A DNA stretch of 64,000 nucleotides from a virus (Duplodnaviria; Caudoviricetes). Location: positions 7,598-71,597 of IMG/VR virus record IMGVR_UViG_2857192945_000001; one strand, written 5' to 3'. The notes under the pieces are model-generated. The model ran no database searches. It had not been told where the DNA came from and worked only from the letters and a program-made list of their open reading frames with translations. The translations under genes were made by a program, and so were the position numbers. Positions 31 through 59,030 of this stretch are shown here, piece by piece. Within the stretch, counting starts at the first letter, position 1; the number at the start of each line of letters is the position of its first letter.

Positions 31-942
31 GTGACCTACGAAACGAGCGAAGAGCAGCAGGCGTTCATTCTGGGCGCCGACGATTTCTGGGGTGAGGGGA
101 AAGCTAACCCACACCCCCAAGACACAGCAGAGTGGGCGGCGTATGAGGCTGGGTATCGCAGCCAGTCACATGCTCTCGACCAACAAGCATTAGCCATGGA
201 GGGCAGCATGCCGCGCAAGAGCCTGGATGACATACTGAGCAATGACCGATCCGTTTCGCGGGGGGCGAGGTACTCCTCAGATGACCTGTTCAGCGGGTCG
301 AGCAAGGGGTACACGGGCTCCAGCAAGAACTGGTCAAATTCCCACAGGTGTTACACGAAACACCCGCCCTTGAAGCTTCCAGGTACGGAACTAGTGATCT
401 ACGGCGGGTCCTGCTCCGATCCTGTCGTTCTGGACGCTGACGTGTATATCGGCTTCGACGGGTCGATGCGTTGGACCGAGCGCCATTACCCATGGAAGAA
501 GGGTGACGAGGTCTATTTCCGCATTCAGGACATGGGCGTTCCGCAGAAGCCGGACGAGTTCAAGAAGCTGGTCAAGTGGACTCGGCAGCAGCTCGAGGAT
601 GGTCGCAAGGTGCATTGTGGTTGCATCGGTGGACACGGTCGTACGGGGACATTCCTCGCGGCTCTCGTTTCCGATTTCGGTGAGCAGGATGCGGTTACCT
701 ACGTGCGGGAGAACTACTGTCAGAAGGCGGTCGAGTCGAAGTCCCAGATGGACTTCCTGCACGAGCATTTCGGTATCAAGAAGGTCGAAGGATCGAAGGC
801 GAGTAAGAGCTCGCACAGCAAGGGCTCGAACAAGTCGTCCAATGTGAAGGACTTCGGCAGTTACTCGTCGCGGTCCGGCTCCAGTAAGGCGACCGCCAAG
901 GTGTATGGATATCTAAAGGGCGCCGGCTCGATTTGGGAATAG
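31..942 (+). CDS. Cys-based (CX5R) protein-tyrosine/dual-specificity phosphatase family protein; possible alternative start at ATG 208
   Basis: VHCGCIGGHGRTGT contains the C-x5-R-T catalytic loop; upstream FRIQDMGVP resembles the general-acid loop; strong SD GCCATGGAGGGC at 193-204 precedes ATG 208. Confidence 0.75.
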   Translation: MTYETSEEQQAFILGADDFWGEGKANPHPQDTAEWAAYEAGYRSQSHALDQQALAMEGSMPRKSLDDILSNDRSVSRGARYSSDDLFSGSSKGYTGSSKNWSNSHRCYTKHPPLKLPGTELVIYGGSCSDPVVLDADVYIGFDGSMRWTERHYPWKKGDEVYFRIQDMGVPQKPDEFKKLVKWTRQQLEDGRKVHCGCIGGHGRTGTFLAALVSDFGEQDAVTYVRENYCQKAVESKSQMDFLHEHFGIKKVEGSKASKSSHSKGSNKSSNVKDFGSYSSRSGSSKATAKVYGYLKGAGSIWE

Positions 943-2575: not shown

Positions 2576-4969
2576 ATGACGATTTTGATTTGGACAACGT
2601 CAGAAACCTCGCTCCTGCAGAAAACCTTTGGCCCGATTATGAGGTCGTTCCGGCCCGACGTTCCGGCTCACAAGTTCGTACCGTGGAAAGAGGAGGACCC
2701 TGTGCCGGAGGCCGGGAAAGGGGACGTAGTCCTTGTCTGCGGCAGCAAGCCACTGGAAACGATGCGGCGAGAGGGTCTGGTTCAGAAGAACCTGACTCTC
2801 AACTCATTACGGGAAAAGCCATTGAAGCGGGGTGGCGGGCATTACCTCCTGACGTTCGACCCGTACTCGATGATGACCGAGCCGGAAAAAATTGAGTTGC
2901 TCGCCTGGGACGTTCGCCTGGCGGCCCGCGTGATGCGCACCGGTTCTCCGTTGCCGAACCTCGGCCAGTATAAATGGGTGAACACTTACCAGCCCATGAT
3001 CGATTGGATCGAGGAACGGTACGCCAAGACAGGCAAGGCCGTCGACGTAGCCTGCGATACCGAAACGATGGGCTTCTATCCGTGGTATCCGGACAAGGAC
3101 ATAGTCTCGATCAGCTTCACTGCGAAGCCGATGACCGCGGAAGTTCTGTATCTGGGCCCGCAAAAGCGCCCGATAGATCTCGACCCCAACGTGCCGCTGT
3201 TCGATCAGATCCAGTGGCTCCTGACGTCTCCGAAGGTGAAGCTGCGTTTCTCCAACGGCAAGTACGACCTGATCTGGATCGCGGAGAAGTGGGGCATTGA
3301 GTGCACGAACTTCAAGTTCGACAACATGCTAGTCGGAACTTTGCTGAACGAGAACCTGTCGAACAGCCTGAATATCCACGCCAAGGTTCGGACGGACATG
3401 GGTGGGTATGACGACAGCTTCAACGACAAGTACGACAAGGGCCACATGGAGAAGATCCCGGCGAATGACGATTTCCTCGTTTATGCCGGAGGCGACACGG
3501 ATGCGGCCCAACGCGTGGCCGACAACCTCCGGGACGAGCTCGCTGAAGACGAGCAACTGACCAAGTTTTACATCACCATCCTTCATCCTGCCGCGCGCGC
3601 CTTCGAGAAGATCGAGCGCCGTGGTGTCTGTGTGGATCAGGAGAAGTTCGCGATCCTCCGCGATGACCTCAAGAAGGTAGTCAAGGAGAACCAGGACAAG
3701 GCGCTTGCAATCCTTCCGAACCGGATGCGGATCAAGTACCGGGACCGGATCGACGACCAGATCGCGGCTGGTAAGAACCCGCTACTGCCATCCATCCTCA
3801 AGGAGTTCTTCTTCACCCCTCACGGGTTGAACCTCAAGCCCAAGATGACCACCGGCAAGACAGGCGAACCTTCCATGGCGAAGGCCCATCTTCGCCAGTT
3901 TGCAGATGTGCCGGCGGCCATGGAGATGGTTGGTGTCCTGACCGAGATGGACTCGGCGGCCAAAACGCTCTCGACCTTCGTGGAAGGCTTTCTCAAGCAC
4001 CTGCGTCCGGACGGCAAGTTCCATACGACATACTTCCTCGGTCGTGCGGAGTTCGAAGGCCACGATGACGATGAAAGCGGCACCGTAACGGGGCGCCTGT
4101 CGGCCAAAGACCCGCCGTTCCAGGTGGTGCCGAAGAAGACCAAGTGGGCCAAGCGCATTCGCGAATGCTTCCCGGCGCCGAAGGGCTATGTCGTCCTGTC
4201 TCTCGACTACAGCCAGGGCGAGCTGAAGGTCGTCGCCTGCGTGGCGAACGAGAAGACCATGATCCAGGCGTACATGGACGGCCTCGACCTCCACGCACTG
4301 ACCGGAGCCAAGCTTGCTCAGGTGGACGTGCAGGAGTTCCTGAAGTGGAAGGACAGCGAAGACGCCGCACTGGCAGCCGCATTCGAAAAGAACCGCGGAA
4401 ATGCCAAGCCGGCCAACTTTGGACTCCTTTACGGAATGCAGGTCGAAGGCTTCCGTCAGTATGCGTGGGCCAACTACGGCATTAAGCTCTCCTTCGCAGA
4501 AGCCGAAGCGATGCGTAACGCCTTCTTCGAGCTGTATCCGGGTCTGCTCGGTTACCACGAGAAGCAGCGCACACTGGTAAGCATGACGGAACAGGTTCGC
4601 TCACCACTGGGCCGTATCCGCCACCTACCGATGATCAAGTCGTGGGATCGTGAAATCAAGTCCCGAGCCGAGCGCCAGGCAATCAATTCCCCGATCCAGT
4701 CGACGTTGACTGACATGATGTGCTGGGCGATCGCGCTGATCGAGGATGCTTACCCGAACTCGCCAGTGCAGATTGTGGGACAAATCCACGACGCCATGAT
4801 CGCCTATGTGCCGGAGCACGAAGCGACCCTGTGGGCTGGACGCCTCACGGAAATCATGAGCAATCTGCCCTTCCACGAGCTGGGGTGGAACCCTGTCTTG
4901 AAGTTCACCGCGGACGCAGAGGCAGGAGCAACCCTCGCTGATCTGAAGAAGCTGAAACTCGCCGCTTAA
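2576..4969 (+). CDS. polA: Family A DNA polymerase with 3'-5' exonuclease and degenerate N-terminal UDG-like domain
   Basis: ExoI DTET, ExoII NGKYD, ExoIII YAGGD; TVTGRLS; motif A DYSQGEL; motif B RGNAKPANFGLLYG; motif C QIHDA. Confidence 0.95.
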   Translation: MTILIWTTSETSLLQKTFGPIMRSFRPDVPAHKFVPWKEEDPVPEAGKGDVVLVCGSKPLETMRREGLVQKNLTLNSLREKPLKRGGGHYLLTFDPYSMMTEPEKIELLAWDVRLAARVMRTGSPLPNLGQYKWVNTYQPMIDWIEERYAKTGKAVDVACDTETMGFYPWYPDKDIVSISFTAKPMTAEVLYLGPQKRPIDLDPNVPLFDQIQWLLTSPKVKLRFSNGKYDLIWIAEKWGIECTNFKFDNMLVGTLLNENLSNSLNIHAKVRTDMGGYDDSFNDKYDKGHMEKIPANDDFLVYAGGDTDAAQRVADNLRDELAEDEQLTKFYITILHPAARAFEKIERRGVCVDQEKFAILRDDLKKVVKENQDKALAILPNRMRIKYRDRIDDQIAAGKNPLLPSILKEFFFTPHGLNLKPKMTTGKTGEPSMAKAHLRQFADVPAAMEMVGVLTEMDSAAKTLSTFVEGFLKHLRPDGKFHTTYFLGRAEFEGHDDDESGTVTGRLSAKDPPFQVVPKKTKWAKRIRECFPAPKGYVVLSLDYSQGELKVVACVANEKTMIQAYMDGLDLHALTGAKLAQVDVQEFLKWKDSEDAALAAAFEKNRGNAKPANFGLLYGMQVEGFRQYAWANYGIKLSFAEAEAMRNAFFELYPGLLGYHEKQRTLVSMTEQVRSPLGRIRHLPMIKSWDREIKSRAERQAINSPIQSTLTDMMCWAIALIEDAYPNSPVQIVGQIHDAMIAYVPEHEATLWAGRLTEIMSNLPFHELGWNPVLKFTADAEAGATLADLKKLKLAA

Positions 4970-5030
4970 TGATTGTGCAATTAATTGCATACCGGTAAGC
5001 TGGAGTGACAGCTGACAAAGAAGGTGTGTG

Positions 5031-6902
5031 ATGAGCGACGAGAACAAGACAGAGGGCAATCGCCCTCAGCTGCGCCTGGTAAAGTTTCAGGGCGACGGGG
5101 ACCCGGTCCTCGATAAGCTGCGCGGAAAGGTGACGAAGGCGAATGGTGAGGCAGTAGCCGCCAACGCCTTCGAAAGTGAAGACGAATACCAGGACCTTTA
5201 TATCGGCGCCGCTCGCGACGTCGGTATTCTCGAACCACCGTACAACCTCAAAAGTCTCGACAGGCTCGCTCAGGAGAACAACGCCCTGAGCCCCTGTGTC
5301 GAGGCGATGGTCACCAACGTTGATGGCACCGGCTACGACTTCGAAAAAGATGGCGAAGAAGCCGAGGACCACCACGACGACACACATATCGACCACTTGA
5401 ATGATTTCTTTAGCCAGCCGTGGCCTGGTGTCTCCTTCCAGACAATACGCAAGGAACTGCGCCGCGATCTCGAGCGTACTGGCAATGCTTATCTCGAAGT
5501 GCTGCGCAACCCGCAGGACGAGATTGTGTTCTTTCGTCGCGTCGACGCCAAGATGATGCGTCTAGTCAAGCTGGACGATCCGATCCCAGTCAAGCGCACG
5601 GTCAAGCGCCGCGGCAAGGACGAGACGATCACCGTCATGCAGCGCGAGCGTCGTTTCTGCCAGATGGTGAACGGAGTCAGCCTCGTTTACTTCAAGGAGT
5701 TCGGCGCAACCCGCGACGTCCATAAGAAGCGGGGCTCATGGTCACCAGTCGGTAACAGGCTGCCAGCGGACATTCGTGGCACCGAGATCATCCACTTCAC
5801 GTTGCTTCCCGACTCGCACACGCCTTATGGCGTTCCCCGTTGGATCAGCCAGCTGCCGTCCGTTCTTGGCTCCCGCAAGGCCGAAGAGTTTAATCTGGAG
5901 TTCTTCGATAATGGCGGCGTCCCCCCGGCGCTGATCATCCTGCAAGGCGGCTCTCTCCAGCACGAGACACGCAACGCCCTCGATCAGAAGTTGGCTCAGG
6001 GTACTGCCGGCCAGAAGAACCGCATTCAGGTGCTGGAGGTTGAGCCCACCGGCGGCTCCATGGACAAGGAAAGCACTGTCCGCGTGACGGTGGAACGCTT
6101 CGGGGCCGAGCGTCAGAACGATGCGATGTTCGAGAATTATGACGACAAGTGCGAGACCCGCATTCGTCGCTCGTTCCGCCTGCCTCCGATCTTCGTGGGC
6201 AAGGCCGACGACTATTCGTTCGCGACCGCCTTCGCCAGCTACACGGTTGCTGAGGCTCAGGTGTTCAAGCCGGAGCGCGACGAGTTCGACGAGATTATCA
6301 GCCTGAAGCTGATCAAGGCGCTGGGCTTCCACGATTACAAGATGGTATCCAAGCCGCTCGTTATCGAAGACGCCACGCTCAAGCTCGAAGGCATCAACAT
6401 GGCGATCCAGACCAATCAGGTCGACATGGAAGATATCATCTACGAGATCAACGAAGCCTGCGGCACCGACATTCGTGTCAGCGACAAGCCTCGTGTTCTC
6501 ACGGGAGCCAGCCATACGATCGACGCGGACGGCAACATCGTCCCGGTCCCTAAGGAAATCCCGGCCAACCAGAACGAGCCGACCAAACCTGGGGCCAAGC
6601 CAAAGGTCTCAGCCAAGACACCGACCCCGGTCGAGAAGATCGAGCATCGCGGCGTGAATGACCTAGCCCTTGACACTATGATCGCGCTCCGCAACCGGGA
6701 CACGGTCGCCCTGGCCAAGAACATCACGCTGATCAACTCACTCGACAGCGCGGGGTTCGATCGCTTCCGGAAGGCGTCGGCGGATCTTCAGTTCATCGAT
6801 ACGACGCTCGACAGCGAGGGGCTGACGGATTTGGCTTCCTGCACGATCTCCGTCATGAACCGTAGCCTGGCCAAGCAGGATTGCTGCGGCCACGTACACT
6901 GA
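5031..6902 (+). CDS. Portal protein (PBSX-like family)
   Basis: GNAYLEV, YGVPRW, FFDNGGVP, FRLPPIFVG portal-type motifs; first gene of head module. Confidence 0.85.
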   Translation: MSDENKTEGNRPQLRLVKFQGDGDPVLDKLRGKVTKANGEAVAANAFESEDEYQDLYIGAARDVGILEPPYNLKSLDRLAQENNALSPCVEAMVTNVDGTGYDFEKDGEEAEDHHDDTHIDHLNDFFSQPWPGVSFQTIRKELRRDLERTGNAYLEVLRNPQDEIVFFRRVDAKMMRLVKLDDPIPVKRTVKRRGKDETITVMQRERRFCQMVNGVSLVYFKEFGATRDVHKKRGSWSPVGNRLPADIRGTEIIHFTLLPDSHTPYGVPRWISQLPSVLGSRKAEEFNLEFFDNGGVPPALIILQGGSLQHETRNALDQKLAQGTAGQKNRIQVLEVEPTGGSMDKESTVRVTVERFGAERQNDAMFENYDDKCETRIRRSFRLPPIFVGKADDYSFATAFASYTVAEAQVFKPERDEFDEIISLKLIKALGFHDYKMVSKPLVIEDATLKLEGINMAIQTNQVDMEDIIYEINEACGTDIRVSDKPRVLTGASHTIDADGNIVPVPKEIPANQNEPTKPGAKPKVSAKTPTPVEKIEHRGVNDLALDTMIALRNRDTVALAKNITLINSLDSAGFDRFRKASADLQFIDTTLDSEGLTDLASCTISVMNRSLAKQDCCGHVH

Positions 6903-6910
6903 GGTGAGAC

Positions 6911-8458
6911 ATGCTTGATGCGAAAGCATTCATCGCCTTGGAAACCACCCAGTCCGCTGTGATGCGGGCTGGTTGGCGTAAGGAGGCAGCGCGGCACATC
7001 AAGGCACTGGAGCCGATGCTCGCCCAAGGGCAGTGGGATTACGCCCACGAATACGTCGACAAGATCACGATGAACGGAGTTGTGGGAAACCACTTCGCTC
7101 GCCTTGAGGAGCTGGCCGTATCCTCGATCCTGTTCGGCGCCCAGAATGTCACACAGGATCTGAAAAAGACGAGCTTTGTGACAGGCTCCGCTGAAATCCC
7201 GTATGGGATGCAGCAAGCCCTCGAGCAGATGAATTTTATGATCGAGCGAGACGGGGCCGAGCTGCTGCGCAAAGAGCTGCATGCGATTATCCGCCAGGAA
7301 GAGATCGAGTTCCGGGAGGCCATCGCCAAGTCGGGCAAGCAGACGCTTTATGTCCATCGTCCATTGCTCAACGCAGTGCAATTGATTGCATGGGCAAGAT
7401 TGAATGGCTTCAAGACGGCTGTTCCGCCAGAGGAGATGCACGTTACCGTCTGCTACAGCAAAACGCCCATTGATTGGGGCGACCCTGGCTATTCTGCGCC
7501 TGGTGTGCGTGCGTCGGGCGGCAAGCGCACCATAGAGCGGTTCGGCAAGGCGATCGTTCTCACTTTTGAGAGCCAAGACTTGCATGACGACCACGAGCGC
7601 TTTGAAGACTCGGGAGCCTCGTGGGATCACCCGAGCTACAGACCACACGTCACGATCTCTTACGACGAAAACCAAGAAATCGACATTAGCAAGATCGAGC
7701 CGTTCACCTTCGACCTCGAGTTCGGGCCAGAGGTGTTCGCACCTGTGAAGGAGGATTGGTCATCCGGTATCAAGGAAATCCGCCTGAACAAGGCAGCAAA
7801 CCTCAGCCTTGCCGAGAAGCTGAACAACGCCGTGATGGGCAAAGGCGGCAAGATCATCGACATAGGCGCGAACCTCACGACAAGCCGGCTGGTGTCTCTC
7901 GGTTTCCTCGCAGAGGCGATCGACGCCGAGATTGACACGTACCAGGTGAATGAGGTGCTGGACGAGCTGACATGCCCTGTATGCCGTTACATGCATGGCA
8001 AGACGTTCCGCGTGGAGAATGAGTTCTCGCGCACCATGAACGTGCTATCGACCACCGACCCGAAAGAGCTGAAGGGACTTGCTCCGTGGCCACTTCAGAC
8101 AAAGGCCGGCCTCAAGAGTCTGTATGCAATGTCAATCGGTGACATGCAGAATGCAGGCTACGGCAGCCCGCCTTATCACCCCGGATGCCGCGGCTACCTC
8201 TCGCTCACTGGTACGGTGACCGAGGAGTTCCCGATCGGATCGTTGATGATCACGGAAGCAGCTCTCCCAGAGAAGCCGAAAGTGACTCCAAAGCCCGCAA
8301 AACCGGCAACTCCATGGCTCGAGAAACCCACTGGATGGCTCGACGTCATCAACAGGATCAAAGACCAGTCGAAGCGCGAGGCCGCTCTTCAGGCGTGGTC
8401 TGATGAGAACTACGATCTCGTTCGTGAACTAATCGTGGAAGCCGGTCTGTCGGTTTGA
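6911..8458 (+). CDS. Head morphogenesis (MuF/SPP1 gp7-like) protein with inserted 2H phosphoesterase (Acb1-like) domain
   Basis: C-terminal DELTCPVC...PPYHPGCR MuF motifs; central HVTVCYS (aa177) and YRPHVTISY (aa246) paired HxT motifs; follows portal. Confidence 0.8.
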   Translation: MLDAKAFIALETTQSAVMRAGWRKEAARHIKALEPMLAQGQWDYAHEYVDKITMNGVVGNHFARLEELAVSSILFGAQNVTQDLKKTSFVTGSAEIPYGMQQALEQMNFMIERDGAELLRKELHAIIRQEEIEFREAIAKSGKQTLYVHRPLLNAVQLIAWARLNGFKTAVPPEEMHVTVCYSKTPIDWGDPGYSAPGVRASGGKRTIERFGKAIVLTFESQDLHDDHERFEDSGASWDHPSYRPHVTISYDENQEIDISKIEPFTFDLEFGPEVFAPVKEDWSSGIKEIRLNKAANLSLAEKLNNAVMGKGGKIIDIGANLTTSRLVSLGFLAEAIDAEIDTYQVNEVLDELTCPVCRYMHGKTFRVENEFSRTMNVLSTTDPKELKGLAPWPLQTKAGLKSLYAMSIGDMQNAGYGSPPYHPGCRGYLSLTGTVTEEFPIGSLMITEAALPEKPKVTPKPAKPATPWLEKPTGWLDVINRIKDQSKREAALQAWSDENYDLVRELIVEAGLSV

Positions 8459-8561: not shown

Positions 8562-9233
8562 TTGTTCGGAACAAGCTTCAAGGACGGGTGGATGAAGGGC
8601 GCGCAAGCGGCCCCGGTTCATCATGCTTTGAAGGGCGATGCGAGCCAGAAGTCGATCCAGATCAAGAAGCAGGACGAAGAACAGCAGCTCGTTTTTGGTG
8701 AGGTGTTTGCGCCGGGGTTCCCTGACAGCCAGGGGGACTTCATGACGGTCGAGACCATCCAGGAGATGGCTTATGGCTTCATGCGCAAGGGTTTCGTTCA
8801 GAAGATCGATATCCAGCACTCTCAGCAGGAAAGTGGCTGCTACGTCGTCGAAAGCTTCATTGCGCGTGAGGGTGACCCGACTTTCATTCCTGGGAGCTGG
8901 GTGCTGGGCGTCAAGGTCCCCGATCCGGAGATCTGGAGCCTGGTCAAGTCCGGGGAGCTCAACGGCTTCTCTCTTGATGGCTTCGGGGTTCGTGTCGACA
9001 GCGTTATCGAGGTCGACATGCCCGACGTCATCCGGGGATTGACGCTCGAGGCCGAAGGCCACTCCCACGTTTTCTACGTCAAGTACGACCAGGACGGCAA
9101 TTTCCTGGGCGGCCACACCGACGTCGTCGACGGTCACATGCATCGAATTTTGCGGGGAACCGCCACGGAGGACTCGAACGGTCACTCCCACCGGTTCTCG
9201 TTCGTCGAAGGAGTGCTCAATGCCCAAGCTTGA
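8562..9233 (+). CDS. XkdF-like prohead serine protease with C-terminal GHxH repeats
   Basis: KKQDEEQQLVFGEVFAP..DSQGD, IDIQH, GSWVLG, GELNGFSLDG typical of XkdF-like proteases; position between MuF and scaffold. Confidence 0.8.
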   Translation: MFGTSFKDGWMKGAQAAPVHHALKGDASQKSIQIKKQDEEQQLVFGEVFAPGFPDSQGDFMTVETIQEMAYGFMRKGFVQKIDIQHSQQESGCYVVESFIAREGDPTFIPGSWVLGVKVPDPEIWSLVKSGELNGFSLDGFGVRVDSVIEVDMPDVIRGLTLEAEGHSHVFYVKYDQDGNFLGGHTDVVDGHMHRILRGTATEDSNGHSHRFSFVEGVLNAQA

Positions 9234-10689
9234 GATCAAGGCCACCGAACTCGTGGGGACGGACGTGAACTTCGTATCAATGGTGAAGCGGGGAGCGAAC
9301 CGCATCCCGTTCCGTATCACGAAAGGGGATGAACCCATGGACCTGTACAAAATTGGCCGCATGCTTCTGAACAAGGGCGAGCCTGAAGTGCCGGAGGTCG
9401 TTGCGGCTATTGTGCAGCCAGGCGTCGACGCTACCGCTCTGGCTCAGACGTTCAAGGACGCCGGCCTCGACCCGCTGCAGTACACTCCGGTGGAGAAGGA
9501 TGGCGTCGTCGTCATCGCCAAGGAGAACGCGGACGCGGCAAAGGACACCGTCGTCATCAAGGCGAATGAAGGTGTGGCTTTTGTCGTATCGAATATGAAG
9601 AAGGCGTTCATGGACTACGATTACGAGTCCAAGGACTTCCTCACCGTCCTGAAGACCAACGGTTTCTACCCGACGCTTTGCGCCGCACACGATGCCTTTG
9701 CCACGACGGTATCCAATATCCTCTACGAAGCAACCAGCCCGTCTGAGGCTGCCCAGGCAATTTCCAAGGCTGCTGACGATTTCAAGACCTACGTCACGGC
9801 AATGGCTTCGTCACTGCCGGTGCAGGCTTTCAAGATGGAAGTCGCATTGGCCAAGGCTGATGCAGGCAAGAATGGTACTGGCGCCGGCTTCGAAGCTGGT
9901 AAGGGCACGGGAACCACGCCAAGCGCAACGGCTGACGACGCCGCGCACACTGCAATTAACAGCACTGGCGAACCGACCCACGGCAATCCCGACGAACAGC
10001 CTGTCGAAACTCACAAGTCTGACGCCGACAAGGGCAAAGACGAGATGAAGGACAAGGAGAAGGAAGAAGCCAAGAAGGACGAGCTCAAGGGCGTCCCTCA
10101 GCCGACCGGCCATGAGCCTGGTGACGCTGGTGGCTTCGCAGCCGCTCCTGCCGACACGCAGCGCGCCGTTTCCCACGCCTCTGCCGACGACAAGAAGATG
10201 AAGCTGAATGGTGGCACGACCGGCAGCTCCATCCCGGACGGCGACAGCGGGCTCGCACGCTTCGGCGGTGTGAAGAAGGAAGAAGAGCCAGTCCAGAAGA
10301 ACGAAGGCGACGACAAGATTGGTGGTGAGCAGCAGACGCTCCCTGAAGACCAGTCCGGTTCGGGCGCCCAGCAGGCTGCCGAGGTCAAGCCGACCGCAGC
10401 CGATCTCACGAAATCCGACAACGCCGACATTCTGGCGGCAATCGCTGCCCTCCAGAAGAGCGTCTCGGAACAGGTCAACGGCCTCCAGTCCCGCATGGAG
10501 AAGCAGGTCGGTGATCTGAACGCCCGAGTCGATCAGGTAGCCACCATGGCTCGCAAGACCGACGCGGCACTGAACGGCACCGTGTTCGCGGAAGATCCGG
10601 GCGACCGGGTTCGCACTTCCAAGTCGGAAGCTCATTCCGGTGAAATCCCACTTCTCGACACTGCCATCTCTCGCATCAGCGCCGCGTAA
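9220..10689 (+). CDS. Capsid scaffolding/assembly protein
   Basis: Acidic low-complexity middle, C-terminal coiled coil, immediately upstream of capsid gene. Confidence 0.6.
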   Translation: MPKLEIKATELVGTDVNFVSMVKRGANRIPFRITKGDEPMDLYKIGRMLLNKGEPEVPEVVAAIVQPGVDATALAQTFKDAGLDPLQYTPVEKDGVVVIAKENADAAKDTVVIKANEGVAFVVSNMKKAFMDYDYESKDFLTVLKTNGFYPTLCAAHDAFATTVSNILYEATSPSEAAQAISKAADDFKTYVTAMASSLPVQAFKMEVALAKADAGKNGTGAGFEAGKGTGTTPSATADDAAHTAINSTGEPTHGNPDEQPVETHKSDADKGKDEMKDKEKEEAKKDELKGVPQPTGHEPGDAGGFAAAPADTQRAVSHASADDKKMKLNGGTTGSSIPDGDSGLARFGGVKKEEEPVQKNEGDDKIGGEQQTLPEDQSGSGAQQAAEVKPTAADLTKSDNADILAAIAALQKSVSEQVNGLQSRMEKQVGDLNARVDQVATMARKTDAALNGTVFAEDPGDRVRTSKSEAHSGEIPLLDTAISRISAA

Positions 10690-10729
10690 TGCGGAAGGCA
10701 AGCAAAGTACAGCGAAAGGAACTATATCC

Positions 10730-11707
10730 ATGACGACCAATTCCAGCCTCCTCCGCAAAGCCGATCTGGTGATCGAGGACCTGCGCGCAAATGGCGGCGA
10801 ACTGCTCCCTGAACAGGGTGCCGCTTTCATTCGCAAGCTGATCAAACAGCCGACCCTGATCCGGCAGTGCCGTGTGGTCGAAATGCTGGCTCCGAAGCGT
10901 AAGATCAACAAGATCGGCTTCGGCAAGCGTATCCTCCGCAAGGCCACCTCCGGCGTAGCTCTGACCCAGGCTCAGCGCTCCAAGCCGACGACCGAACAGC
11001 TCGAGCTGGATACGAAGGAACAGATCGCAGAAGTTCGTCTGCCGTATGACGTTCTCGAAGACAACATCGAGCGCGCCATCTCGGCAAACAACGAAGCGTC
11101 CAACACCGGCCCAGGCGGTCTCCGTCAGACCATCATTGACCTGATCGCTGAGCGTGCTGCTCTCGACTTGGAAGAGCTGGCGCTGCTCGCTGACAAGGCG
11201 TACGTAAACGCTGCTGACCAGGACGATCAGGATTACCTGAGCCAGCTCGACGGTTGGTTGAAGCGTGCCAAGACCACCGGTCATGCGGTCGATGCTGGCA
11301 ATCAGACGATCAACAAGTCTATCTTTAAGAAGGGCTTGAAGTCGCTTCCGTCGCAGTATCAGCGGAACAAGGCTGCTCTGACCCACTTCGTGTCGGTCAA
11401 CAACGCCACGGAATACCGGGACACCCTCGCTGACCGCGGTACTGGTCTCGGTGACAACATGGTGCAGGGCAACAGCCCACTGTTTGCTTTCGGGTCTAGC
11501 GTTGCTGACGTTGCTCTGATGCCGGAAGAAGAAGGGCTGTACACCGATCCGCTGAACCTTATCTTTGGCATCCAGCGTCAGGTTTCGATGGAATTTGACA
11601 AGGATATCACGGCTCGTGTGTACATCATCGTACTGACCACCCGCGTCGACTTCCAGATCGAAGAGCCAGATGCGATCGTGGCCTACGAAAACATCGCTGA
11701 AGAATAA
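10730..11707 (+). CDS. Major capsid protein (HK97 fold)
   Basis: 325 aa, AAAGGA SD, GGELLPEQ, YDVLEDNIE, DGWLK, NLIFG motifs; strongly biased codons; downstream hairpin. Confidence 0.88.
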   Translation: MTTNSSLLRKADLVIEDLRANGGELLPEQGAAFIRKLIKQPTLIRQCRVVEMLAPKRKINKIGFGKRILRKATSGVALTQAQRSKPTTEQLELDTKEQIAEVRLPYDVLEDNIERAISANNEASNTGPGGLRQTIIDLIAERAALDLEELALLADKAYVNAADQDDQDYLSQLDGWLKRAKTTGHAVDAGNQTINKSIFKKGLKSLPSQYQRNKAALTHFVSVNNATEYRDTLADRGTGLGDNMVQGNSPLFAFGSSVADVALMPEEEGLYTDPLNLIFGIQRQVSMEFDKDITARVYIIVLTTRVDFQIEEPDAIVAYENIAEE

Positions 11708-58296: not shown

Positions 58297-58506
58297 ATGC
58301 CGAAGCCGATCACTAAAACTCAGATGGCATCGCTATGGTTGGACGAGTTCTCCGACACAGGACACTGCTGCTTGTGCGGCAATCATGGCATCATCGACAC
58401 GCGAGGCAAGGTGTTCACCCCTGCAGGTCATGAGTGCGGCGACCGTGTTTGGTGCATTTGCCCCAATGGAAGAATTATGAAGAAACAGAGAGGCGGAAAG
58501 CCATGA
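58297..58506 (+). CDS. Small Cys-rich (Zn-ribbon-like) protein
   Basis: CCLCGNHG...WCICPNG; GAGGA SD. Confidence 0.6.
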   Translation: MPKPITKTQMASLWLDEFSDTGHCCLCGNHGIIDTRGKVFTPAGHECGDRVWCICPNGRIMKKQRGGKP

Positions 58507-59030
58507 TTGATATGATGGCAATGGCGTTCGCAACAGCGGCGCATTCAGCAATAGGTCAGACCCGCAAGTACACGGGCAATCCGTACATCGTCCATCCTCG
58601 GGCGGTCGTGCAGATCCTCCGGGACCACGGTATCAACGATCTGTGTGTCATCGGGGCAGCGTGGGTCCACGACGTGGTGGAAGACACGCAGGTCACGATC
58701 GAACAGATCGAAACAACGCTAGGACCGCGTATCGGTCACATGGTGCGGGACCTGACGAATGTTCCCCTGGAGTTCGGCAACAGGAAGGCTCGCTATGAGG
58801 AGAACCTGAGACGATTGTCCCTCGCATGCCCTGACTCACAGAACATCAAGCTCGCTGACCTGATCGACAATACGCGATCGATCGTGAAGCACGACCCGAA
58901 GTTCGCACCCAAGTATCTCGAGGAGAAGTCCGATACGATCGACGTACTGACGAGGGCAAAGCCTCTCCTGATCGAGACAGCCAGAAAGACGCTTCAGGAC
59001 GGTTGGGACCAATTGAAAAATAAGTCCTGA
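58503..59030 (+). CDS. HD-domain hydrolase, RelA/SpoT-type small alarmone hydrolase (Mesh1-like)
   Basis: AH..GQTRKYTGNPYIVHP, AAWVHDVVEDT, IKLADLIDN. Confidence 0.85.
   Translation: MIDMMAMAFATAAHSAIGQTRKYTGNPYIVHPRAVVQILRDHGINDLCVIGAAWVHDVVEDTQVTIEQIETTLGPRIGHMVRDLTNVPLEFGNRKARYEENLRRLSLACPDSQNIKLADLIDNTRSIVKHDPKFAPKYLEEKSDTIDVLTRAKPLLIETARKTLQDGWDQLKNKS

Follow-up and report, generated by a model that had tools for sequence, protein, structure and literature searches.

An Acb1-type 2H phosphodiesterase domain lies in the middle of a MuF-like minor head protein encoded by a siphovirus-type provirus. The protein, P0001, is the 515-residue product of an open reading frame at positions 6911 to 8458 (+ strand) of a 64,000-nucleotide stretch of IMG/VR record IMGVR_UViG_2857192945_000001 (Duplodnaviria; Caudoviricetes); this stretch, hereafter the window, covers positions 7,598 to 71,597 of the 71.6-kb provirus record. 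Residues 144-285 are a full-length Acb1-type enzyme domain and not a generic LigT-type one, their catalytic machinery is intact by alignment, and they separate an N-terminal helical region from the MuF-like core. The layout of the gene and its product is as follows.

6911 to 8458, + strand: MuF-like minor head protein with inserted Acb1 domain, P0001, 515 aa
6911 to 7309, + strand: N-terminal helical region, aa 1-133, common to insert-less relatives in the alignment
7340 to 7765, + strand: Acb1-type 2H phosphodiesterase domain, aa 144-285 (PF23474; structure matches)
7760 to 7798, + strand: low-confidence linker from the Acb1 domain to the MuF core, aa 284-296, the sole segment with a predicted local distance difference test score (pLDDT) below 50
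7790 to 8230, + strand: MuF-like core, aa 294-440 (PF04233 below cut-off; PHROG matches)
8321 to 8455, + strand: short C-terminal helical tail, aa 471-515, after a Pro/Lys-rich linker (alignment, model)

Three kinds of evidence identify the inserted domain. The Pfam Acb1 family model PF23474 matches it with 128.7 bits (cut-off 27, E=1.8e-37) over profile positions 1-143 of 144, while the generic 2'-5' RNA ligase model, 2_5_RNA_ligase2, reaches only 13.6 bits. BLASTP aligns P0001 to T4 gp57B at 29% identity (E=2e-12). An AlphaFold2 model built with 50 relatives (mean pLDDT 87.2; 72-97 in the Acb1 domain), whose N-terminal part is modelled as helices 4-38, 42-50, 59-81 and 99-140, places the domain structurally closest to characterised Acb1: Foldseek ranks FBB1 Acb1 (7t26/7t27) first (E=5e-6, target-normalised template-modelling score 0.73), followed by a phosphodiesterase of Burkholderia phage BCSR5 and then LigT. 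The same order emerged from VIA-align, with Z 16.3 for 7t27 (root-mean-square deviation 2.0 Å, 132 of 140 residues aligned, model range 144-284) and Z 16.2 for 7t26 (deviation about 2 Å for both chains, 130-132 residues aligned), against 14-15 for BCSR5, on whose enzyme we found no literature, about 11 for LigT-type enzymes and about 10 for Usb1. A first-pass annotation had proposed an Acb1-like 2H phosphoesterase at roughly 7340-7760 and suggested comparison with Acb1 and LigT by hidden Markov model and structure; those comparisons, now run, agree with the catalytic tetrad on this identity, and the proposed span matches the Pfam envelope (aa 144-285, nucleotides 7340-7765).

The catalytic residues support the same conclusion. 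We took functional residues, in T4 numbering, from the available text of Hobbs et al. 2022 (PMC9117128), checked them against the T4 gene 57B sequence, mapped them onto P0001 with MAFFT and BLASTP, and counted conservation in 69 fused homologs.

7439 to 7447, + strand: first catalytic HxT, H177 and T179, equivalent to T4 H44 and T46 (H in 69/69, T in 68/69)
7646 to 7654, + strand: second catalytic HxT, H246 and T248, equivalent to T4 H113 and T115 (H in 68/69; T in 66/69, S in 3/69)
7751 to 7774, + strand: lid-equivalent segment EDWSSGIK, aa 281-288, with W283 equivalent to T4 W147 (W in 65/69)

Both motifs are read in the open frame where the first-pass annotation had seen them, H177-V-T179 within MHVTVCYS and H246-V-T248 within SWDHPSYRPHVTISY. 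T4 Y12 corresponds to Y147 in all 69 homologs, and T4 F107 to H240, where all 69 have an aromatic residue or His; together with W74 and W147, these two T4 residues are the aromatics that stack on nucleobases. R150 and W189 are conserved residues particular to the Acb1 subfamily of P0001. The predicted domain therefore shares with Acb1 (T4 gp57B; FBB1, 7t26/7t27) its Pfam family, 2H fold, HxT/HxT tetrad, Y147 and lid tryptophan W283. It differs in setting: each characterised enzyme is a stand-alone protein of about 150 residues whose lid (T4 residues 145-152), a flexible segment closing on the ligand, is a free C-terminus. In P0001 the domain is internal, and the lid equivalent is tethered to the MuF core by a linker of about 13 disordered residues. 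That the domain might be a catalytically dead structural spacer, or a nucleotide-binding module of the head protein, is very improbable; inactive enzyme domains do exist in MuF proteins, the PBECR domain of Mu gpF being one (available text of Iyer et al. 2017, PMC5512222), while all four catalytic residues are present in P0001 and in 66-69 of the 69 fused homologs, and Y147, R150, W189 and W283 are conserved as well.

Comparison with relatives indicates that the domain is a true insertion. Seven relatives of about 360-540 residues without an Acb1 domain align with P0001 on both flanks of the insert. Among 121 proteins (the query and its 120 best matches), BLAST detected both the N-terminal region and the core in 94; the Acb1 domain was absent from 46 of these and present in 48, in every case between the two regions, as expected from the mid-protein insertion that had been proposed. 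Composition bears no mark of recent insertion at the Acb1 domain: in a GC profile comparing the frame with its flanks, values were 0.55-0.59 along the frame and 0.54-0.62 on either side.

The distribution of the insert on the backbone phylogeny is evidence that this slot repeatedly gains or loses Acb1 cargo. On a quick IQ-TREE phylogeny of the backbone only (93 rows, 279 columns; P0002, the window's own cluster representative, was left out), presence and absence of the domain require 10 changes, at least 4 of them forced by well-supported branches, and close sisters differ in the insert (P0028/P0079 and P0008/P0058). Shuffled labels needed a mean of 31.4 changes, and none of 500 shuffles came down to the 10 observed. 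Both one gain followed by several losses and several separate gains are possible histories. Movement of an Acb1 cassette between carrier proteins found no support: in a domain tree of 108 rows, in which only 13 of 105 branches were well supported, the approximately unbiased test did not reject monophyly of the 50 MuF-borne domains (p=0.593).

Other sequence also occupies the slot. We observed about 215 residues ahead of the Acb1 domain in P0028, about 80 residues ahead of it in five proteins, and 35-58 residues without any Acb1 domain in six; the relatives with such inserts are P0028, P0031, P0032, P0041, P0042, P0048, P0049, P0051, P0054, P0063, P0073 and P0079. These inserts may be further cargo.

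Acb1 domains of this subfamily recur on other proteins of the capsid interior. A search with the domain alone retrieved 2261 cluster representatives (E≤1e-3) among 1.84 billion proteins. Of the 150 best representatives only 20 are 260 residues or shorter and the other 130 exceed that length; being the query's nearest relatives, they describe its subfamily and not Acb1 proteins at large, and some of the metagenomic gene calls may be truncated or merged. All 140 of these that we scanned with Pfam match Acb1. Their partner domains include portal families in 43 (Phage_portal_3 27, Phage_portal 9, Portal_Mu 7) and prohead proteases in 11 (Peptidase_S78_2 8, Peptidase_S78 3), together with DUF2213 (8), Phage_Mu_F (8), ADPrib_exo_Tox (11), ART-PolyVal (5) and NUDIX (5). 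In proteins P0122 and P0131 an N-terminal Acb1 domain is joined to a topoisomerase IB of bacterial type. Among chains of known structure, the closest in sequence is portal protein gp3 of cyanophage Pam3 (PDB 8hds_A, E=7e-18), which matches at its C-terminal end: residues of about 470-619 form an Acb1-like domain that includes the motifs HVT and HIS. This head protein is without doubt a virion component, although here the portal itself serves as carrier and the domain sits at its C-terminus; the available text of the Pam3 structure paper makes no mention of the domain.

The carrier of the domain in our window is, with moderate support from sequence, a MuF-like minor head protein. Although P0001 alone falls below the PF04233 (MuF) cut-off, the family matches 28 of 50 aligned relatives at E≤1e-3, relative P0022 scoring 29.7 bits, and P0001 itself matches the minor head and head morphogenesis families phrog_115, 4728, 241 and 24918 (E=7.8e-6 to 3.8e-3); these family-level matches and the position of the gene agree with the MuF-like carrier of the first-pass annotation. 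Structural searches add little here: Protein Data Bank matches to the model are nearly all confined to residues 142-288, barely covering the MuF part, and the whole-length BFVD matches are unnamed. The CPVC and PPYHPGCR motifs noted earlier in the core are present, and their cysteines and histidine are invariant.

7973 to 7984, + strand: CxxC, C355 and C358, one half of a putative metal site (50/50 relatives)
8177 to 8188, + strand: HxxC, H423 and C426, the other half of the putative metal site (50/50 relatives)

The invariance of this CxxC...HxxC arrangement suggests a metal site, though SPP1 gp7 has different residues at the CxxC position. The C-terminal tail is less constant, being replaced by an ADP-ribosyltransferase (PF03496) in 7 of 50 relatives.

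The gene lies in a late module, in the canonical MuF position directly 3' of the portal gene.

5028 to 6902, + strand: portal gene, 624 aa (PF04860 Phage_portal E=5.2e-13; phrog_12 portal E=7.5e-36)
6903 to 6908, + strand: GGTGAG Shine-Dalgarno-like motif, between the portal stop codon at 6900-6902 and the ATG at 6911
8562 to 9233, + strand: XkdF-type prohead serine protease gene (PF14550 E=1.3e-27; phrog_15223 E=1e-73)
9220 to 10689, + strand: scaffold-like protein gene (phrog_27672 E=4.6e-22; weak match to phrog_3017)
10640 to 11707, + strand: probable major capsid protein gene (phrog_1623 virion structural protein E=8.1e-96)

The order is thus portal, MuF-like/Acb1 gene, XkdF protease, scaffold-like gene and capsid, and farther downstream come a lambda-like tail module (tape measure, L, K, I and J homologues) and, after it, replication genes. 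A 9-nt gap separates the portal stop codon from the start of the MuF-like gene, whose translation is probably coupled to that of the portal. Gene position suggests the scaffold role of the 9220 to 10689 product. Processing by the prohead protease at the linkers that border the Acb1 domain would be conceivable, but we know of no cleavage motif for XkdF-type proteases.

Several other genes of the provirus are of interest in their own right. Directly upstream of the portal gene, in a position usually taken by the terminase, stands the gene for a DNA polymerase of family A that also has a 3'-5' exonuclease domain (window 2576-4969, +); no terminase match was found among the open reading frames scanned in the window and upstream flank. 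Window 58434-59030 (+) encodes a 198-aa protein with an HD_4 domain (PF13328 E=6.2e-15; phrog_990, metal-dependent phosphohydrolase), the kind of hydrolase present in RelA/SpoT enzymes; hydrolysis of alarmones is a possible function. The dual-specificity phosphatase domain PTP-SAK / Tc-R-P, which is typical of polyvalent and polymorphic-toxin proteins, is present in two products (window 31-942, +, and L003:5866-6408, +). In the part of the provirus record that lies upstream of the window, L003:3319-5322 (+) encodes a 667-aa enzyme with PPDK_N (E=2.6e-48) and PEP-utilizers (E=4.4e-26) domains, unusual for a phage, and is followed by a small open reading frame with a weak CsrA match.

We propose, with a probability of roughly 60%, that an Acb1 enzyme carried on a MuF scaffold degrades cyclic immune signals, enters the virion and through it the next cell, and also acts late in the producing cell. 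By analogy with T4 and FBB1 Acb1, the inserted enzyme would hydrolyse 3'-5' bonds in cyclic di- and trinucleotide signals, such as the 3'3'-cyclic GMP-AMP (cGAMP) and cyclic triadenylate (cA3)-type signals used by the cyclic oligonucleotide-based antiphage signalling system (CBASS), with H177/T179 and H246/T248 providing acid-base catalysis that needs no metal. SPP1 gp7, in the accounts available, binds the portal and enters the procapsid in few copies; the MuF scaffold of P0001 would likewise bind the portal and bring a few copies of the enzyme into the procapsid. Virion-borne enzyme would then enter the next cell along with the DNA, while late-made copies left unassembled would work in the producing cell.

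A number of observations weigh against this proposal. Some concern the carrier: PF04233 matches P0001 itself (aa 338-428) with 22.2 bits against a cut-off of 29.6, and an hhalign comparison of the relatives' alignment with SPP1 gp7 gave E=0.17 over 29 columns only, albeit in the expected motif region. We call the protein “MuF-like” for these reasons, as relatives, PHROG families and position nonetheless agree. Others concern dose and timing. SPP1 gp7 is described as occurring at one to two copies in each capsid, and if P0001 followed it very little enzyme would be delivered. In T4, Acb1 activity sets in only about 15 min after the start of infection, in step with a CBASS response that also comes late (available text of Hobbs et al. 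2022, PMC9117128), so early delivery is perhaps unneeded. Our literature searches found no biochemical or virion data for P0001 or any 2H-MuF fusion and no experiment on 2H fusions to MuF or portal domains, and for Acb1 together with MuF returned only unrelated work.

The late timing of T4 Acb1 is also what would be expected if P0001 were a real anti-signal Acb1 that acts only late in the cytoplasm of the producing cell, the MuF fusion providing timing and stoichiometric co-expression and the virion copies being irrelevant, cleaved or never ejected. A virion-internal protein that counters CBASS has been described: the T7/ICP3 ejectosome protein Gp15, unrelated in sequence to P0001, inhibits CBASS by blocking the effector CapV without lowering cGAMP levels, and the preprint credits the block, for the T7-like protein, to the unincorporated cytoplasmic pool (bioRxiv 10.1101/2025.07.23.666291). 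We nevertheless consider action confined to the producer unlikely. Late timing could be had from a separate late gene, and the repeated fusion of the domain to portal-family proteins, proteases, DUF2213 and MuF among the 140 scanned representatives points to physical targeting to the capsid.

Further difficulties for signal degradation and delivery concern the substrate. Two T4 substrate contacts are unmatched in P0001: T4 W74 aligns to E209, in a loop region of an alignment of 27-29% identity, and T4 E141, which contacts adenine N6 (available text of Hobbs et al. 2022, PMC9117128), aligns to A277 with both MAFFT and BLASTP, though E274, three residues upstream and aligned to T4 E138, is conserved in 68/69. 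The substrate range or pocket may consequently differ from that of T4 Acb1. Hosts are no more encouraging. Of 401 genomes sampled from one alphaproteobacterial order, 5 have the Acb1 domain; a SMODS cyclase occurs in 0 of these 5 and in 2 of 4 hosts of insert-less MuF prophages, all very small numbers. The provirus record has no SMODS match, but as it contains no host DNA this says nothing about CBASS in its host. A scan of the genome contigs for the MuF backbone gave only 6 loci, the 4 close ones being insert-less, which is not enough for a paired comparison of hosts; four of the five genome Acb1 matches (G029, G313, G381 and G382) lie in open frames of about 600-626 aa, two of which contain one stop codon, and we take them as fused forms on account of that length.

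The unmatched contacts and the absence of SMODS cyclases from the five Acb1-carrying genomes would also fit a 2H domain that acts on RNA, either as an injected Usb1-like RNase or in processing RNA ends and 2',3'-cyclic phosphates for host takeover or tRNA repair. An RNase is among the options raised for 2H-MuF and 2H-portal fusions in the available text of Iyer et al. 2017 (PMC5512222), and phrog_755, labelled “RNA ligase,” matches aa 156-284. We regard action on RNA as distinctly unlikely: the Acb1 model reaches 128.7 bits against 13.6 for 2_5_RNA_ligase2, Acb1 structures score Z 16 against about 11 for LigT and about 10 for Usb1, and the open reading frames scanned in the window and upstream flank include no RNA ligase or polynucleotide kinase.

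A more tentative extension of signal degradation by a virion-borne enzyme is that the MuF slot is a hot-swappable cargo site, empty or filled with Acb1 or with other sequence alone or beside Acb1, and that this Acb1 subfamily serves mainly as a capsid-delivered first strike, present in the cell ahead of all phage gene expression, its altered contacts (E209 and A277) perhaps directed at another signal; we hold this possible, at well below even odds.

A design of this kind has already been predicted in print, and P0001 is a good example of it and not a new kind. In the available text, Iyer et al. 2017 (PMC5512222) reported 2H domains fused to MuF or portal domains and considered that they could degrade the nucleotides of nucleotide-activated defence systems, and Iyer et al. 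2022 (PMC9503650) took such fusions to suggest packaging in the head and injection against SMODS, cyclic-mononucleotide and CRISPR signalling. The functional suggestion of the first-pass annotation, an anti-defence enzyme that is packaged and delivered or else acts late, coincides with these proposals. This is exactly the class of P0001, a 2H domain on a head protein of the late module; those papers are computational, and the analysis of gain and loss in the slot comes from the present work. Fusions are unmentioned in the available text of Hobbs et al. 2022 (PMC9117128), in which “fused” and “portal” each occur 0 times. The MuF polymorphic toxins (available text of Jamet et al. 2017, PMC5576092, with 0 occurrences of “phosphoesterase”) and SPP1 gp7 offer the same MuF/gp7-like cargo scaffold encoded beside the portal gene, and the C-terminal ADP-ribosyltransferase of the toxins is also found on some relatives of P0001. 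Toxin cargo is C-terminal, however, whereas that of P0001 lies upstream of the MuF core and is proposed to be a counter-defence enzyme; the earlier remark that MuF cargo is usually C-terminal is in line with this literature as far as it is available.

With the idea in print since 2017, the value of P0001 is that of a well-characterised example and a testable system, not of a new concept; what we add is the mapping of functional residues, evidence of repeated gain or loss of cargo in the MuF slot, and a pointer to Pam3 for experiments. Backbones that are nearly identical but differ in the insert are natural paired controls, and cultured Pam3, a tractable relative with a portal-borne domain, is a possible test system for virion-borne Acb1. 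The other inserts in the MuF slot are candidates for new anti-defence cargo. If the domain is indeed delivered with the virion, counter-defence enzymes would act before phage transcription, and the view of when CBASS-type immunity operates would change; if it serves as a capsid-delivered first strike, nucleotide-based defences would be engaged or pre-empted as the DNA enters, and MuF slots would be a place to look for new counter-defence cargo.

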